From IMG/VR virus record IMGVR_UViG_3300037608_000255, positions 1 to 43,220 of that record: a stretch of DNA of 43,220 nt, one strand, 5' to 3'. Origin of the DNA: a virus. Lineage: Duplodnaviria > Caudoviricetes. This document shows, piece after piece, positions 14,979-43,220 of the stretch; within the stretch, counting starts at the first letter, position 1; every line of letters begins with the position of its first letter. The notes below the pieces were generated by a model. That model saw nothing but the letters and a program-made list of their open reading frames with translations, was not told where the DNA came from and did no database searches. The position numbers and the translations under genes were made by a program.

Positions 14979-16463
14979 ATGATGAATCTACTATACATAG
15001 ATCTCTTTGCTGGGGCAGGTGGCGTTACAACAGGCGTTGAGAACGCTAGGCTGAATGGCGCAAAAGTCGCAAAAGTTATCGCTGCAGTAAATCACGATCC
15101 GATTGCCATAGCTAGCCATTCGGCTAATCACCCTGAAACACATCATTTTATTGAAGACATCAAAACCTTAGATGTTTCAAAACTTGTTGCAATTGCTAAT
15201 GGGGCAAAAAGAGAAAATCCTGAAGCGAAGCTGGTTCTGTGGGCAAGTTTGGAGTGTACCAACTTTAGTAATGCCAAGGGAGGGTTGCCCAGGGATGCCG
15301 ACAGTAGAACTTTAGCCAACCATTTGTTTAGATATATAGAGGCGTTGAATCCTGATTACATTCAAATTGAGAATGTGAGGGAGTTCATGAGTTGGGGGCC
15401 ACTGGATGATAATGGCAAACCTGTATCAAGGCTTGAGGGGCAGGATTACATTCGTTGGGTAAACAGAGTGAAAGTTTATGGCTATGATTTTAATTGGCGA
15501 TTATTAAATGCTGCCGATTTTGGGGCTTACACTTCAAGGGTAAGGTACTTTGCTCAGTTTGCGAAACAAGATCTACCAATAACTTGGCCTGAAACAACAC
15601 ACTCAAAGGATGTGAGTGGAACGTTATTCAATACATTAAAACCATGGAAACCTGTTAAGGATGTTTTGGATTTAAACGATGAAGGCGAAAGTATATTTAA
15701 TCGCAATAAGGATTTATCTGACAAAACCCTTGAGCGAATACATGCAGGTTTAGTGAAATATGTTGCTAATGGTAAAAAAGAGTTTCTTAGTAAGTACTTT
15801 TCAGGGAAGCCAATGCATAAGAATATTAGCATTGATGGTCCATCGGGTGCTTTAAAAACAAAGGATAGTCATGCGCTAGTAAAGTGTTTTATAAGTCAGT
15901 ACTATGGCAATGGTGGGAATAGTTCAATTGATAGACCTTCGCCAACCCTCACTACCAAAGATCGTTTAAGTTTAATATGGATAGACAAACAATACTCTGG
16001 TCCTCATAATCATCAGAACGCAAACTCCCCAATGGGAACCCTCACAACCATTCCCAAAGCGAGCCTTATGAAAGCCTTTATCCTTAATCCCTCTTGGGGT
16101 GGCCACAACGGAAATATAGATTCTCCATGCTGTGTGATCGTTGCCCGACAGGACAAAGCACCATTATACTTGGTTGCAGTTGAAGAAGGTAATATTGCCA
16201 TTCCTGTATACGAGAGCGATACCGAGGCTATGATTAAAATAAAGGAGTTTATGGCTCTTTACGGCATTATTGATATTAAAATGCGAATGCTTCGGGTGAA
16301 GGAGTTGAAACTAATTACAGGATTTCCTGAATCCTATGTTCTCAAGGGGAATCAGAATGATCAAAAGAAATCCATTGGGAACGCTGTACCATGCATTGTT
16401 CCAAGAAGAATGGTCGAATCTTTAAGCAGAAAAATAATAGAAACCAAATTAAAAGTAGCCTGA
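14979..16463 (+). CDS. C5-cytosine DNA methyltransferase
   Basis: DLFAGAGG (motif I), SLECTNFS (catalytic Cys, EC variant), IENVREF (motif VI), RVRYF (motif VIII), IGNAVP (motif X). Confidence 0.9.
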   Translation: MMNLLYIDLFAGAGGVTTGVENARLNGAKVAKVIAAVNHDPIAIASHSANHPETHHFIEDIKTLDVSKLVAIANGAKRENPEAKLVLWASLECTNFSNAKGGLPRDADSRTLANHLFRYIEALNPDYIQIENVREFMSWGPLDDNGKPVSRLEGQDYIRWVNRVKVYGYDFNWRLLNAADFGAYTSRVRYFAQFAKQDLPITWPETTHSKDVSGTLFNTLKPWKPVKDVLDLNDEGESIFNRNKDLSDKTLERIHAGLVKYVANGKKEFLSKYFSGKPMHKNISIDGPSGALKTKDSHALVKCFISQYYGNGGNSSIDRPSPTLTTKDRLSLIWIDKQYSGPHNHQNANSPMGTLTTIPKASLMKAFILNPSWGGHNGNIDSPCCVIVARQDKAPLYLVAVEEGNIAIPVYESDTEAMIKIKEFMALYGIIDIKMRMLRVKELKLITGFPESYVLKGNQNDQKKSIGNAVPCIVPRRMVESLSRKIIETKLKVA

Positions 16464-16738
16464 TGACAAATACCTACAAGCGTGACAAGTGTGTTCACGT
16501 ACACTTTAAAGACTCTGGAGCAGATTTTTACTTCGGATCAATTGCAGCCATATTTTACTTGTTCACCCCACAGGACGTAGGGGTAACCCAAAATCGATTG
16601 TATCAGGTGAAGCTTGAACCGGGTAAGCCATATAGAAACAAAGTGTGCACCATTAATGTCGGCCCTCTTTACCGTAAGAGAGGGAACAGGAATAATGTTG
16701 TAAAATTATTAGATGTAAATAGAACATATATTCAGTAA
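16463..16738 (+). CDS. Hypothetical basic phage protein, possibly DNA-binding
   Basis: ATG overlaps the MTase stop (TGATG); FYFGSIAAIF segment. Confidence 0.6.
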   Translation: MTNTYKRDKCVHVHFKDSGADFYFGSIAAIFYLFTPQDVGVTQNRLYQVKLEPGKPYRNKVCTINVGPLYRKRGNRNNVVKLLDVNRTYIQ

Positions 16739-16768
16739 ATGTTATATATTTGTATCACAGTAATACAT
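16724..16768 (+). promoter_or_regulatory. Promoter repeat B: -7 TATATTTG plus palindromic box (copy 4)
   Basis: 43/45 direct repeat of 11703-11747, directly upstream of the Dam-like gene. Confidence 0.75.
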
Positions 16769-16774
16769 AAATTT

Positions 16775-17623
16775 ATGTCAGGCAATAAAAGTAAGATAAT
16801 AGCCTTTAACTATTTTGGCGGTAAGTTTACTTGGTTAGATTACTTGTACAGTGAATTCCCGAGTAACTTCAAACACCTAATTGATTTGTTTGGGGGTAGT
16901 TTTGTGGTATCTCTCAATTATAAAGGGAATGTAATTAAAACTGCCAATGAACTTAATAATGACATCACAAACTTTTTCCAAGTTTTAAGAGATCACGAGG
17001 CTGAATTAATAAGGCTATTACTGCTCACACCATGTTCCGAGGCAGAATATAACAGTTGTTGGGAAAACTCCAACAATAATATCGAGCAAGCCCGTCGGTT
17101 TTATGTAAGAGTGCGCCAATCGTTTTTTGGCCTTGGCGCACAACGTAAAAACAAGGGTTGGCATATGGCTAAAACTAAAGTGAACGCCAAGGGAGGGGAA
17201 ACTGTTAGCAAATGGAATAACTCTATTTCAAAACTCTACACCGTTGCTAACGTTATCAGATCTAATTTTCAGATTACCCCCTTCGATTATGCCACATGTA
17301 TAGATAAAATAGACTTTGTTGATGCCTTTTTTTATTGCGATCCGCCTTATAGTAAACGAAGCAGAGCAAGTTTTAACGATTATAAGTATGAGTTTTCCGA
17401 TCAAAACCATTATGAACTGGCCAGTAAACTTAATGCCATTAAAGGCAAAGCCATGGTTAGTGGTTACGACTGCTCCCTTATGAATGAGTTGTATAAAGAT
17501 TGGAGAAAAGTAAAATTTCCAATCAAAAAAAACAACATCAGATCTGGCGAAGTTCAGGAAGTAATTTTCATGAACTATGAAAAGGAATACGCTACCCCAA
17601 ACCTTTTTAAAAGTAGTATTTAG
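16775..17623 (+). CDS. D12-class N6-adenine DNA methyltransferase (Dam-like)
   Basis: YFGGK, DLFGGS and YCDPPY motifs; likely start MSGNKS at 16775. Confidence 0.9.
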   Translation: MSGNKSKIIAFNYFGGKFTWLDYLYSEFPSNFKHLIDLFGGSFVVSLNYKGNVIKTANELNNDITNFFQVLRDHEAELIRLLLLTPCSEAEYNSCWENSNNNIEQARRFYVRVRQSFFGLGAQRKNKGWHMAKTKVNAKGGETVSKWNNSISKLYTVANVIRSNFQITPFDYATCIDKIDFVDAFFYCDPPYSKRSRASFNDYKYEFSDQNHYELASKLNAIKGKAMVSGYDCSLMNELYKDWRKVKFPIKKNNIRSGEVQEVIFMNYEKEYATPNLFKSSI

Positions 17624-17655
17624 TATCGTCTTCCTGATGTCAGGAAGATGATACT
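17622..17655. repeat. 16-bp-arm near-perfect palindrome, possibly a terminator
   Basis: AGTATCGTCTTCCTGA-TG-TCAGGAAGATGATACT with one G.T pair, followed by TTT. Confidence 0.7.
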
Positions 17656-17698
17656 TTGTATCGATTGTTATTATTAATCTTTTAAACAATAAATAATT

Positions 17699-18313
17699 AT
17701 GGAATTTCAAGATTTAAAAGACAAAGCCAAAGAGCTTTTAGAGCCATTAGAGCAAAGGTATTACACATCATTGAGTGATGTTCATTGGGTTACACAAGAT
17801 GGCCACGATGTTGAAGGTGATTATTGTGAAAATTGCATTGAAAAAGCTGTCAAAAATGCTCGTAAATCTCTCAAAGAAGAAAGGCAAAAAGTATTAGCCA
17901 AATTCAAAGAGGTTGAAGAAACTGGCAAGTTTAATGGCGAACAAGTAAAAAGCAAATACACCGATACCGAAATTAAGAAAGCCAAGCGGTATGAGTTAAA
18001 ACAATTAGGTGTTTCAAAATTCAGTAGCACTTATAATCATGGTGGTGGATATGAATCTGATAATTTTTTGACTTGTGAAATTTGCGATAAAGAATTAAAC
18101 ATTTCAATTCTCCCAAACGACCAAAATCTTCAATACATTATTGAAGATATGGAAGACGGAAAGATTGATGACCAAACAGGATATAGAGCATATTGGCTGC
18201 TTTACAACTCATGGGATGAAGAAAGTGAGCGTTATAAGGATGAATTTGAGTTAACCGTCAAATTGGCTAAAAGAGTTATTGAAATACTCGATGTCGTTGC
18301 GGTCGGTTCTTAG
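17699..18313 (+). CDS. Hypothetical protein with two CxxC motifs (cassette-like gene 1)
   Basis: 204 aa, acidic, with CENC and CEIC; stop is followed immediately by the attC-like site. Confidence 0.8.
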   Translation: MEFQDLKDKAKELLEPLEQRYYTSLSDVHWVTQDGHDVEGDYCENCIEKAVKNARKSLKEERQKVLAKFKEVEETGKFNGEQVKSKYTDTEIKKAKRYELKQLGVSKFSSTYNHGGGYESDNFLTCEICDKELNISILPNDQNLQYIIEDMEDGKIDDQTGYRAYWLLYNSWDEESERYKDEFELTVKLAKRVIEILDVVAVGS

Positions 18314-18318
18314 CATCT

Positions 18319-18412
18319 CGCTAACGGCTGGGGGTAAGAACGCAGGGGAGGAGTTCCCGAAACACTCTCCTATCAGCCGAGAAGCCCCTGTGGTTTTTAC
18401 CCCTTGTTACCG
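18319..18412. other. attC-like recombination site
   Basis: CGCTAAC...GTTACCG ends; arms GGGGTAAGAAC/GTTTTTACCCC and GCAGGGG/CCCCTGT with a bulged G at 18392; inner AGGAG/CTCCT stem; GC-rich in AT-rich context. Confidence 0.7.
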
Positions 18413-18448
18413 CTTGGCTTTTATTATTAACCTTTTAATCATACAATT

Positions 18449-18754
18449 ATGAAATTTATCGTATCAACAAAATGCTTTCTAAAAGCAATTATGAAAGCGA
18501 TGGAGTTAAAAATTAATTGCTTTGAGTATGTGTATGCTAATCGAGAAATTGTCTTTACTGATGATTTAAAATTAACAATACACGTTTTAGAGGGAGCTTT
18601 TCACAATTCAAAATACACCTTTGACTTTTTTCAAGTCGTTCGGCTATGTAATTTCCTAAACGAATTACAAGAGCAGCCTATTGTTGTCGAAATTGAGCAA
18701 TACGACGAAAATAATTTATCAATCGAGTTATCGCAATTTGTCGTGTCTTTTTAA
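18449..18754 (+). CDS. Beta-clamp (DnaN) domain-I-like small protein (cassette-like gene 2)
   Basis: 101 aa; MKFIVS start and LNELQEQPIVVEI...ENNLSIEL resemble Bacteroidota DnaN domain I; flanked by 13/15 inverted core sites. Confidence 0.55.
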   Translation: MKFIVSTKCFLKAIMKAMELKINCFEYVYANREIVFTDDLKLTIHVLEGAFHNSKYTFDFFQVVRLCNFLNELQEQPIVVEIEQYDENNLSIELSQFVVSF

Positions 18755-18812
18755 GCTTAGCGGTAACGATTATATAGCACTTTAAGCCCATATCTAACTA
18801 ATCCACAAGATT
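18753..18812 (-). other. Putative attI-like junction next to the recombinase gene
   Basis: AAGCTTAGCGGTAAC is complementary to GTTACCGCTTGGCTT (18406-18420) but has no hairpin body; a second GTTAGAT core lies on the minus strand at 18792-18798. Confidence 0.45.
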
Positions 18813-19610
18813 ATGTATGATTCTATTTTAAGAATTTACGAACAAAAGCTTAAATACCTCAACTACTCAAAGAGGACTATTGGGGTTTACAGCCATTACG
18901 CTAGTAAGTTCCTTCAAACAGTGGGGAAGTATCCACAGCACCTTACATCATCTGATTTTCAGGGCTACCTAAATGGGTTTAATTTTACTTCCATTTCACA
19001 ACAAAATCAGATTATTAACGCGATCAGGTTCCTTTATGAAAAGGTGCTCAATCGGAAATATGATAAGGTGGATTTTACCCGCCCAAGGCGTGAAAAAAGG
19101 TTACCGCAAGTGATCGATTCTGCTTTTCTGGTTGAACGAATTAATGCTATACCCAATTTAAAGCACAAATCCATTCTAATGTTGGCGTTCTCGGTTGGGC
19201 TTCGGGTTAGTGAGGTTATAAACCTTAAGATAGAGGACATCGACTCTGAAAGAATGCTAATAACCATTAAGCAGGGGAAAGGAAGAAAGGATAGGATTGT
19301 GCCCCTCTCGCCAAACCTACTCACCACCTTAAGGGAGTACTACAAGGCCTACAAGCCCAAAGGTTTTCTTTTTAACGGACAGTTTTCAGATCGTTACTCT
19401 GCCACCAGTTGCAACCAGATAGTAAAAAAATACCTTGGAGACAAGTACCATTTTCACAGCCTTAGGCACTCATGTTTCACTTCGCTATTGGAATCTGGAA
19501 CCGATTTGAGGATTATTCAAAAGATTGCTGGACACGCCAGCAGTCGTACAACAGAGGTTTATACACACGTTAGCAATAGAATATTGGGCAGGGTGCCACT
19601 TCCGATGTAA
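18813..19610 (+). CDS. Short integron-integrase-like tyrosine recombinase
   Basis: 265 aa; N-terminal YSKRTI...QQNQIINAIRFLYEKVL...RPRREKRLPQV as in IntI-like proteins; catalytic GLRVSE, KGRKDR, HSLRH, GH and Y intact; appears to lack the IntI-specific insertion. Confidence 0.85.
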   Translation: MYDSILRIYEQKLKYLNYSKRTIGVYSHYASKFLQTVGKYPQHLTSSDFQGYLNGFNFTSISQQNQIINAIRFLYEKVLNRKYDKVDFTRPRREKRLPQVIDSAFLVERINAIPNLKHKSILMLAFSVGLRVSEVINLKIEDIDSERMLITIKQGKGRKDRIVPLSPNLLTTLREYYKAYKPKGFLFNGQFSDRYSATSCNQIVKKYLGDKYHFHSLRHSCFTSLLESGTDLRIIQKIAGHASSRTTEVYTHVSNRILGRVPLPM

Positions 19611-38297: not shown

Positions 38298-39086
38298 TTA
38301 ATCCTCCAACGCTTTACTGAACTTGTTAACAAAGTAAACCTGTCCTTTCCCCGTCACCTTTGGGGTGGTTGAAACCAGCACCGTGCCATCAGGCTTGGTG
38401 ATTGAGGTTTTCTTTATTTCAAACAGCCCTGTCTCCATGGCGCGCTGGGTTGGCATGTTGTGATGCTCACCTGTTTTTCCTAGATATCCATTGCTGCGCA
38501 TCCACTTGAATAAGCGGTTTTGACCTATCTCGTAGCCATTCTGAGTGATGATTTTAGCTAACTCAGCCATAAGGCATGATCGGCTGCTGGTTTCAACGGC
38601 TTGGGCAAAACGCACCCTGGGCATGTTGTGCAGGTTAATCTCCTCCTGTAGGGCTGCTTTGCTCTCGGCAAGTTGGCGCTGCTGGCGCTCCGATTTTAGT
38701 TCGGTTAGTACGCTTATCATAGCGTCAGGGTCAGAGATAGCCTTCTCTACAAAGGATTCGGTTGCGTAAACGCCGTGTTTTCGGATAGATGGCGCAACAT
38801 CATAACATAACCAGTCTTGGAATGCTTCTGCTTCGGGTTTTCTTGATTGAAACGTTGTTTTGTAAATATTTCCTTCATCAACGTAAACCATTGGTTGTAA
38901 CCCTCCGTTAGTAGGGGTGTCCACAGTATGGATACCCTTTGGGTTTAACCTTGTTTTCACATTATTGTGATTAATTATTCCCAAAGCATTGCACACATCG
39001 GCCAAGCAAAATAGCGCTTCCCCATTATTACTTTTGGCTACTCTCACTTCGCCAAACTTGCTGTTGCTGAAAACTTGTAGATTCAT
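38298..39086 (-). CDS. Antirepressor (BRO-N plus ANT/KilAC)
   Basis: FCLADVC...SRKPEAEAFQDW...PSIRKHG; IGQNRLFKWMR...VTGKGQVYF. Confidence 0.9.
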   Translation of the reverse strand: MNLQVFSNSKFGEVRVAKSNNGEALFCLADVCNALGIINHNNVKTRLNPKGIHTVDTPTNGGLQPMVYVDEGNIYKTTFQSRKPEAEAFQDWLCYDVAPSIRKHGVYATESFVEKAISDPDAMISVLTELKSERQQRQLAESKAALQEEINLHNMPRVRFAQAVETSSRSCLMAELAKIITQNGYEIGQNRLFKWMRSNGYLGKTGEHHNMPTQRAMETGLFEIKKTSITKPDGTVLVSTTPKVTGKGQVYFVNKFSKALED

Positions 39087-41609: not shown

Positions 41610-41745
41610 TCTCGCTATCTGCGGGTGTTCCTGCTGCTAAAATCTCAGATTCGACCGTCCCAACGCTTTTTACTCGGTTTCAAACGGCGTTCCCCGGAGC
41701 AATGCCCTCCCTCCTTGATTCCAAAACACCCTCTCTTGTGGGTTG

Positions 41746-41818
41746 TAGCGAGGATTGGACTCGAACCAATGACCTTCAGATCATGAATCTGACGAGCTGC
41801 CAACTGCTCTACCTCGCA
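41746..41818 (-). tRNA. tRNA-Met (CAT), initiator-like, CCA not encoded
   Basis: Cloverleaf: GCGAGG/CCTCGC acceptor with 1:72 mismatch, GAGC/GCTC D stem, TCAGA-TTCATGA-TCTGA anticodon arm, TTCGAGT T loop. Confidence 0.9.
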
Positions 41819-41829
41819 ATGTTATAATG

Positions 41830-41849
41830 CAAATGTATTACAGTAGTAC
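41830..41849 (-). promoter_or_regulatory. tRNA promoter -7 element overlapped by a palindromic box (copy 6)
   Basis: Minus-strand TACATTTG at 41837-41830; GTATTACAGTAGTAC at 41835-41849. Confidence 0.6.
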
Positions 41850-41921
41850 GAACAATCCAATATTTAATTCAATTATTTTACAACTTTACACCAAAAATTA
41901 TATACAACTTTTACCCTTCTT

Positions 41922-43220
41922 TTATATACACTGGTTTTTTAGGCAATCCAATACCAGCCTGTTTGCAGTGTCAACGCGGCCAAAGTCCTTCTCGATGTAA
42001 ACATCGGCCATCCTTAACCCTTGATCCACATGGTTAAGGGCAAGATCAACATCATCTTTAGAAACATCGCACTTATTGCGAGCAATGGTGGCCCAGCTGT
42101 GGCGAGCGTAGTATGTAGAGAGGGCAATATCAATCTTTGCTGCTTTGGCCACAACCTTAAGCCCCTTGTTCACGTTGCTGCTAAATATATGACTGGTGGT
42201 GTATCGGGAGTAAAAATCGAAAACCCGCACCCCTTTTTTGTCGATATACTTCTCAATTATTGCCTGCGCCTCGGGTTCAACTTTAATCGAGATAAATGCC
42301 TTATCCTGTCGTCTACCTCTCGTTTTTTGTCTCTCATACTCCAAGCGCCCTTTTTTTAAGCGGGTAACTTCGTACATGTCGGCCAAATTAATTCCCACGA
42401 GGTAAAAGGAGAGCAAAAATACATCCCGGGCAAAAATTGCTCTATCCAGCCCTATTTCCTCATCGGTAAGATTAACTACGGCCCTAATTTCCTGAATGGT
42501 TAGGTTTCTTTTCTTGTTCTCGGGTCGCCTTTTTAGCTTGTACTTTCGGAAAGGGTAGTGAATAATGCGCAGTTCATCCCTGTCCTCGTCGTTAAATTCT
42601 TCCATGGCAGCGTTGAACAGCAGCCGAACGTCGGTCATGTAATCAAACAGGGTGACATCCGAAACAGGGGGGCGTTTCGTTGTTACGGTTTTGCCAAACT
42701 GATTTTTTCTTTTAATAATTCTATCCGTTTTCAAAAACTCCTCGAACTGGGCAAGAAATTTATAGGTTATCTCGGTAATTGACAGCCTTTCTCGGCCATT
42801 AATAAAATCGACCAATGCATTCACGGTTCGTTTCAGGTTATTTGCCGTGTTTTGCCTACCTTTTAAGCGGATCTGCTCAATATGTTTACGGGAAAATTCT
42901 ATAAAATCGATACTATGATCCGTGCCGGGCTTAGCTTCCTTCTGCAGGTAATTTGCCAACTCCTTGGCGGTGTATAGTTCTATCCTGTTACCAAGTTTCT
43001 GCGATTTAATATCCTCATACTTGGCTATGCGCCTATTGAGCTCATTTAAAATGTAAACATCTTTTAGGCTAAAGGTTTTTTTATTTATCTGCTTGTCGGT
43101 AACGTAATACTCGGTATTGATGTAGCATGATTTTCCTTTCCAATAGAGCCGAATAGAAACAGGGTATTTCTCATCCTGTCGCCTTTGATGTTCAAAAACA
43201 CATATTTTAAAAGTTGCCAT
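41922..43220 (-). CDS. int: Phage tyrosine integrase (Bacteroidota type)
   Basis: 432 aa; N-terminal arm-binding-like domain; GINLAD, RQKT, YYARHSWATIA, LNH and catalytic Y (DVYI). Confidence 0.9.
   Translation of the reverse strand: MATFKICVFEHQRRQDEKYPVSIRLYWKGKSCYINTEYYVTDKQINKKTFSLKDVYILNELNRRIAKYEDIKSQKLGNRIELYTAKELANYLQKEAKPGTDHSIDFIEFSRKHIEQIRLKGRQNTANNLKRTVNALVDFINGRERLSITEITYKFLAQFEEFLKTDRIIKRKNQFGKTVTTKRPPVSDVTLFDYMTDVRLLFNAAMEEFNDEDRDELRIIHYPFRKYKLKRRPENKKRNLTIQEIRAVVNLTDEEIGLDRAIFARDVFLLSFYLVGINLADMYEVTRLKKGRLEYERQKTRGRRQDKAFISIKVEPEAQAIIEKYIDKKGVRVFDFYSRYTTSHIFSSNVNKGLKVVAKAAKIDIALSTYYARHSWATIARNKCDVSKDDVDLALNHVDQGLRMADVYIEKDFGRVDTANRLVLDCLKNQCI

Follow-up and report, generated by a model that had tools for sequence, protein, structure and literature searches.

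A probable gene-cassette exchange platform with an I2-less tyrosine recombinase in a phage assigned to Bacteroidota

Integrons, classical or sedentary chromosomal, combine a tyrosine recombinase (IntI) next to one non-hairpin junction (attI) with a polarised array of single-gene cassettes carrying imperfect AAC/GTT-core hairpins (attC). They are defined by the I2 insertion of the enzyme, to which the capacity for single-strand recombination is ascribed and for which, in the accessible text of PMC7790495, intermediates are lacking. Bacteroidota are merely listed among integron-bearing phyla in the available part of PMC8618304, and IntegronFinder 2.0 names one complete integron for Bacteroidetes proper in the part of its report that is accessible (PMC9024848). 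Smyshlyaev et al. 2021 delimit an 'integron-like' subgroup of tyrosine recombinases whose insertion is 'not fully conserved', with 144 Flavobacteriia, 71 Bacteroidia and 49 Cytophagia proteins; theirs is a protein classification, and its available text gives no sites or arrays for such members (PMC8138268). Among phage integrons and attC-site clusters without an integron-integrase (CALINs), Qi et al. 2023 treat P12002L_attC1, called by HattCI, as an IntI-type attC without integrase; it is the one of six sites without verified IntI1 recombination, and the accessible text describes neither a dedicated recombinase nor an inverted layout (PMC9892861). Here we analyse a 43,220-nt stretch of DNA, IMG/VR virus record IMGVR_UViG_3300037608_000255 (hereafter the window), in which a 265-aa tyrosine recombinase is preceded by two small genes and an attC-like hairpin. 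We read this locus, with a probability of roughly 80%, as a platform on which a Bacteroidota phage exchanges gene cassettes; the recombinase of the locus likely catalyses the exchange on hairpins folded from single-stranded DNA, in the manner of integron integrases. A search of the open-licence literature, which leaves subscription journals uncovered, found no description of the cassette system, apparently an undescribed variant of the integron kind.

The unit is a head hairpin, an open reading frame (ORF), plus a 3′ end box, with breakpoints just after AAC, both from hairpin to hairpin and from hairpin to the attI-like junction beside the recombinase. A first annotation, made from the letters of the window alone (the sequence-only reading), had suggested comparing related phages for cassette gain, loss or shuffling at the AAC junction, and cassettes are indeed gained and lost exactly there. 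The window's closest phages, at loci L002 and L003, match it at 85–86% identity in the enzyme and 77–84% in the portal and keep the gene order around the enzyme; a single 1,341-bp unit at AAC, made of a hairpin and a TnpB-like gene, sets them apart from each other. Six homologous cassette pairs were found among the arrays. One 223-bp cassette recurs at three loci (L028, L040, L033), where its neighbours differ but its head hairpin stays 98–100% identical; at one of them it abuts the attI-like site. The hairpin therefore moves with the gene after it. In the Polaribacter phage Freya (isolates of 44.0–48.9 kb; enzyme 35% identical, in the same clade of short forms), all six variants compared with the Freya_10 reference diverge from it directly after CAAC. 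In Freya_1, _2, _5 and _9 a deletion ends in a join with the attI-like site, in Freya_8 a deletion runs from hairpin to hairpin, and Freya_6 has another cassette at the attI-like site; Freya_3, _4 and _7, whose sequences lie outside this comparison, agree in lengths and positions with Freya_2 and _6.

Homologous recombination between repeated intergenic elements, or assembly errors, might be invoked for such differences, since the hairpins are alike and most loci are metagenome assemblies. However, random hairpin pairs are just 52% identical, the breakpoints fall exactly after AAC even at the attI-like site, where no stem is shared, and the Freya genomes come from plaque-purified isolates (PMC8776804, accessible text). 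The L002/L003 and Freya breakpoints largely refute this explanation, which we find scarcely credible. Discrete gain and loss of cassettes at the core, as in integrons, is documented by the 223-bp cassette, by L002/L003 and by Freya, and we regard it as highly likely that exchange occurs at AAC.

The joining site beside the recombinase is of the non-hairpin type, as in integrons, at all loci compared, in the Freya junctions and in L002/L003. The comparison covered the 75 viral loci with at least 120 nt upstream, from the best 80 of 156 relatives, and the window. In all 76, an NAAC followed by an AT-alternating box (AAC followed by TATTATATATA-type sequence) lies 40–91 nt ahead of the recombinase start. 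AAC, TATA and a T at −7 are invariant; the pattern was picked after the sequences had been seen, yet the T at −7, which formed no part of it, is present in 76/76. Among 24 locus pairs, not independent of one another, that are at least 90% identical in the 300 nt past AAC, 15 differ in the preceding 60 nt and 9 are identical. The recombinase-proximal AAC of the window (18765–18767), which the sequence-only reading had likened to attI, is followed by no hairpin, and its counterpart is kept at every locus compared. The same upstream junction was recognised by eye in 14/80 genome loci, nearly all of them with short forms of the enzyme.

Hairpins of the form YAACG..GTTR accumulate on one side of the recombinase, with 378 in 392,539 nt upstream against 6 in 507,532 nt downstream; the corresponding counts for the reverse orientation are 2 and 0. 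Where 1.5 kb of upstream sequence is available, 55 of 57 loci have a hairpin within it; around the homologues, neighbours vary and hairpins recur, the opposite of the outcome named as refuting the sequence-only reading. After removal of duplicates and of bodies outside 20–1500 nt, we retained 319 cassettes in 312 sequence clusters. In 252 of these, the 4 bases after GTTR complement the 4 before the next YAAC (against 10 when both ends are taken from one hairpin, and a mean of 10.8 with a maximum of 19 after shuffling), and the same complementarity is seen at the attI-like junction in 51/56. The longest cassette ORF lies on the folded strand in 301/319, on the opposite strand in 6 and on neither in 12, so the inverted orientation proposed for the window is general in the phages. 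Once sites are re-formed, the coding strand folds better in 309/319.

A covariance model was built from 42 sites of other phages. Its stem has two-sided changes at 14/20 pairs. A G·T pair adjoins the core in 42/42 model sites, where the G was demanded by selection; its partner T is found in 314/319 cassettes, and a second G·T pair in 37/42 model sites. A 2–4-nt bulge on the 5′ arm, adjoining AAC, occurs in 279/319. The conserved structural marks are this bulge and the two G·T pairs, not an extrahelical G. The window hairpin does carry the bulged base on its 3′ arm that the sequence-only reading had singled out, but 237/263 hairpins have no 3′-arm bulge; the bulged G is ruled out as a family landmark, and the integrons' extrahelical bases on that arm have no general counterpart. 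The cores deviate from consensus across the family, as they had been seen to do in the window: RYYYAAC is found in 28/319 and GTTRRRY in 31/319, and YAAC/GTTR alone is kept. An Rfam search of four arrays gave no match at E 0.1. The model misses long-loop sites; it detected no hairpin in the searched stretches of Ingeline or Freya_10, and a looser scan found several in Freya_10. Of two other cultured phages, Leef_1 (L167:3828–6000) has enzyme, junction and hairpins, and Ingeline (L166:7700–7970) has the enzyme and a junction-like AAC, with no hairpin detected.

The recombinase consists of a Phage_int_SAM_4 and a Phage_integrase domain, and its catalytic residues (Table 1) are kept across 67 aligned relatives. 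The absence of I2, suspected from the start, is borne out by alignment: about 37 columns of IntI1 and Shewanella IntI are missing, and between matched stretches the enzyme has 35 residues against 83 in 2A3V. It scores under every curated cut-off tried, both for integron integrases (TIGR02249, 148.4 bits, cut-off 265; NF011946, 106.9 of 435) and for Xer proteins (NF040815, 165.7 of 220; TIGR02224, 127 of 335; TIGR02225, 125 of 330). Of the 49 proteins placed in a tree, the 23 short forms group together (98/92); adding the 16 longer chromosomal forms gives a 39-member clade (100/98) that excludes the 3 IntI and 7 host Xer proteins. The tree is unrooted and has three IntI rows, a plasmid search for diverse IntI having yielded almost only IntI1, and a lineage that never had I2 looks the same in it as one that lost it. 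Two identities were rejected for the 265-aa enzyme. It is not the prophage integrase, since it has two domains only, with no arm-binding N-terminal extension, and the integrase next to tRNA-Met is separate. XerA, XerC and XerD resemble it in size and two-domain build and include its best solved-structure matches, but it misses their curated scores, stands in a clade separate from host XerC/D and is tied to variable cassette arrays.

The likeness to classical integrons goes beyond layout: both have imperfect AAC/GTT-core hairpins, crossover within AAC, complementary cassette ends and one strand folding better, and the family shares with IntI-type systems intact catalytic residues, a covarying imperfect stem and strand asymmetry. 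Unlike integrons, the phages have an enzyme without I2, cores that vary freely yet covary, hairpins with a 2–4-nt bulge and G·T pair beside AAC in place of a conserved 3′-arm extrahelical base, and ORFs on the folded strand, facing the recombinase. A degenerate IntI integron captured by a phage would share the SAM_4 domain, the AAC/GTT cores and the overall layout, and the enzyme family may belong to the 'integron-like' subgroup as described in the available text of PMC8138268. We consider such a capture very improbable: I2 is missing, the TIGR02249 score is far from its cut-off, consensus cores occur in less than 10% of sites, the clade is separate and well supported, and one family site tried with IntI1, P12002L_attC1, gave no verified recombinants in the accessible text of PMC9892861. 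The family probably accounts for many Bacteroidota members of the 'integron-like' subgroup, the two being compared by description only. The system is integron-like in its working and fails IntI membership. The distinct phage integron class suggested by the sequence-only reading is supported by these comparisons; it is not confined to phages, as a longer relative with arrays of normal orientation is present in Bacteroidota chromosomes, and it is no integron by the IntI definition.

P12002L_attC1 belongs to the hairpin family by the covariance model and heads a DNA methyltransferase gene. Its companion P12002L_attC2 (L161:29226–29242) lies just beyond that gene, on the strand opposite to family sites; reversed, it resembles the end junction of the attC1-headed cassette. 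Such an assignment would explain the 'divergent' sites of Qi et al.

Model matches were obtained at 32/80 genome loci, 13 upstream on the + strand and 19 downstream on the − strand. Unlike in classical integrons, the 19 downstream arrays follow the 3′ end of longer enzymes (mostly 300–385 aa), with the AAC junction just beyond the stop and genes in classical orientation. Three long-form chromosomal loci (L125, L140, L144) have a fully classical layout, the array lying upstream and its genes pointing away from the recombinase. In Polaribacter sp. R77954 (G001; C1:1899000–2036000, L176–L182), an array follows a 371-aa relative; a scan over 160 kb counted 150 sites on one strand, against 4 on its complement, in repeats of about 125 nt, as in classical integrons. 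End complementarity is present in 130/138 of its cassettes, and the ORFs lie opposite to the folded strand in 100 of 138 (11 on the same strand, 27 without ORF). An ORF ahead of its attC and pointing away from attI is therefore the arrangement of this chromosome and not of the phages. Family sites were found in 51 of 151 sampled Bacteroidota genomes, this one included, with 25 candidates scored per genome.

Several points weigh against our reading. The array of the window is short and partly decayed. No excised form, joint or variant appeared in the two runs that hold window DNA, which are DNA contig sets with no RNA set listed and are uninformative on rare circles. No cassette promoter was identified, promoter scans being at chance level. 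The recombinase lacks the insertion held to confer single-strand recombination (PMC7790495, available text), its top solved-structure matches by sequence are XerA enzymes (4A8E, E 5e-35), and hosts encode a longer relative that might act in trans.

The last points could mean that the host's longer relative moves the cassettes and that the phage enzyme, in the fashion of Xer, does no more than resolve multimers of phage DNA at the site next to it. Hosts do encode long relatives beside the same sites, and P12002L holds family sites with no annotated recombinase. On the other hand, the arrays are polarised to the phage gene, 5/6 Freya changes end at its attI-like junction, and the enzyme family's clade is apart from host XerC/D. 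Phage Danklef adds a further case: at L224:6970–7492 the beginning of a hairpin is joined to the C-terminal portion of the recombinase gene, with the N-terminal portion and the junction missing. Danklef_1 and _5 are identical across 9,001 nt spanning the array, and all five Danklef records have equal length from the shared array match to the record end. The array has thus stayed unchanged with a broken enzyme despite a Polaribacter host; this is suggestive only, Danklef being an imperfect control, as its host strain differs from that of Freya and the attI-like junction is also gone. Movement by the host enzyme strikes us as distinctly unlikely, and the phage enzyme as probably the catalyst of exchange.

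As substrate we favour the single-stranded hairpin, a likely choice because the complementary cassette ends bring an advantage only once a site has re-formed and folded. In the mechanism we propose, the coding strand would fold and the enzyme would bind the AAC/GTT core and a second TAT box 10 nt in. One strand would be cut within AAC and exchanged, and replication would resolve the junction, because the bases past AAC differ between partner sites; in tyrosine recombinases, the lack of shared sequence past the crossover blocks the second exchange. The excised circle would re-form a fully paired site and re-enter at the attI-like junction, so that the newest gene would adjoin the recombinase. 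The 2–4-nt bulge and the G·T pair beside AAC would replace the extrahelical bases and I2 of integrons, and the ORFs, facing the recombinase, would be read within the + strand transcription unit of the phage.

Ordinary double-stranded exchange at short AAC-centred sites, with hairpins as carried-along RNA or regulatory elements, would suit an enzyme without I2. In phages the folded strand is also the mRNA strand, where G·T pairs could equally be G·U, and, of the 121 cassette ORFs at viral loci L001–L080 with a length of 95 aa or more, 36 have their start within the head hairpin and continue across its 3′ arm. Yet in the chromosomal array the folded strand is mostly antisense to the genes. Hosts and phages orient genes oppositely, so folding tracks the crossover and not the mRNA. 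With no Rfam match either, and with end complementarity that pays only in the folded site, we hold double-stranded exchange to be unlikely and retain the folded single strand.

In the window itself, the three ORFs lie where the sequence-only reading had placed them, all on the + strand, and the hairpin (54.5% GC) separates AT-rich genes as described (Table 1). Its boundaries, CGCTAAC at 18319 and GTTACCG at 18406, its asymmetric spacers (5 against 2 nt) and the 13/15 complementarity between 18406 and 18753 were all recovered. Of the two cassette genes announced ahead of the recombinase, gene 2 belongs to a complete cassette, and gene 1 is a cassette in decay that has lost its head hairpin.

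Table 1. Coordinates of the cassette array and recombinase in the window.
Feature	Position	Strand	Remarks
Perfect 16-bp palindrome	17622–17655		Left boundary of array, at the place of the gene 1 head hairpin; z −5.8
AT-rich leader of gene 1	17668–17697	+	80% like gene 2 leader (18421–18450)
Gene 1, 204 aa, 35% GC	17699–18313	+	Cargo of decayed cassette; 3′ end box kept, head hairpin lost
Cassette 1 3′ end box (..ATCTCGC TAAC)	18314–18325	+	1 base shorter than that of L173
attC-like hairpin, 88 nt, TAACG..TGTTA	18322–18409	+	Head of cassette 2; better fold on + (coding) strand
Cassette 2, 442 bp, from after AAC to after AAC	18326–18767	+	Hairpin body, leader, gene 2, end box; predicted mobile unit
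Right core and flank GTTACCGCTTGGCTT	18406–18420	+	13/15 complementary to far end of cassette 2
Gene 2, 101 aa, 31% GC	18449–18754	+	No known family; 4 database matches, itself counted
attI-like junction: cassette end AAGCTTAGCGG TAAC, then GATTATATAGCAC	18753–18780	+	TAAC begins 49 nt ahead of recombinase ATG
Short tyrosine recombinase, 265 aa, 41% GC	18813–19610	+	R131, K156, H215, R218, H241, Y250; no I2 insertion

The window hairpin taken alone is unremarkable against shuffles (z −1.3 to −1.55; 16–18/200 shuffles equally good). Its significance comes from its match to the family model, not from its own folding score: against a covariance model built without it, it scores 27.5 bits (E 0.0034) and is the window's sole match below E = 1. 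It is also the sole + strand match in a separate hairpin scan of the window, and re-forming the site lowers the folding energy from −19.0 to −27.8 kcal/mol. Of the 6,597 GTTR/YAAC pairs in the window with a spacing of 100–1500 nt, only 2 attain 13/15. The second, besides that of cassette 2, is an inverted GTTG..CAAC at 38368–38597 within a Bro-N/KilAC antirepressor gene, with no hairpin, and is probably due to chance.

At locus L173, a gene 1 homologue 82% identical belongs to a cassette that is complete and shares the end box; homologues at 5 further loci have no flanking hairpin. In cassette 1, the near-invariant family T at −7 is displaced because the end box is one base short. The palindrome at its left boundary gave no match to the covariance model, and the leader that genes 1 and 2 have in common is no motif of cassettes in general (12/319). 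Neither gene has a Pfam or NCBIfam family or a usable Atlas match, and viral scans queried with both returned only an identical contig. No empty-site relative of the window phage was found among 15 portal loci.

The window is a temperate tailed phage with capsid, SPP1-type portal, terminase, S24 repressor and BACON-domain protein genes. A 432-aa integrase (41922–43220) adjoins a tRNA-Met (region 41745–43220), and the array recombinase is, as claimed, distinct from it and at its own locus; the sole Rfam match in the window is a tRNA. The organisms that carry recombinase relatives in a genome search are nearly all Bacteroidota, and we take these to be the hosts of the phage. The array closes a + strand block of accessory genes that holds two DNA methyltransferases. 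These C5 and D12-class genes (14979–17623) immediately precede it and may be old cassettes whose hairpin is gone, methyltransferases being the commonest annotated cargo elsewhere; a covariance-model scan of the window found no family hairpin left at them. Contigs of both runs break at 16724–16773, and a further contig has just the beginning of the D12 methyltransferase gene in common.

Of 120 cassette ORFs of at least 95 aa, 21 have a Pfam match; the cargo comprises 9 DNA methyltransferases (and 1 weaker), Tad6 (a Thoeris inhibitor), an RNA ligase, two ADP-ribosyltransferase domains and others. The cassette gained by L002 relative to L003 (L002:2697–4037) encodes a 388-aa TnpB/IS605-type protein. 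Upstream in L002, methyltransferase and EcoO109I-type nuclease genes on the opposite strand end in a cassette-type end box, and are possibly a host-oriented cassette. As to expression, a sigma-70-like match at 18796–18769 on the − strand, one of 13 where 12 are expected, would read the ORFs antisense. The TAnnTTTG motif occurs in 27/319 hairpins and 1/75 attI spacers.

Somewhat more tentatively, we lean towards a second integron kind: an I2-less lineage that would recombine folded single-stranded hairpins by a different structural code, with superintegron-sized Bacteroidota arrays missed by current tools and a short phage version whose inverted cassettes stock methyltransferases and other counter-defence genes. 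If true, single-strand recombination would have an extant representative that does without I2. Integrons being defined by I2, an I2-less enzyme acting on hairpins makes a pre-I2 origin of single-strand recombination testable. Given family sites in a third of the sampled genomes (51/151) against one named complete integron, a large gene-capture system may be unannotated. The available text of the Freya and Danklef report takes the integrase as a sign of lysogeny, and the word 'integron' is absent from its main text (PMC8776804); the 'integrase' of Freya, Leef and Danklef may not be the lysogeny marker assumed. These cultured marine phages are a ready test system, and for phages the platform would provide a mechanism for rapid turnover of accessory genes.

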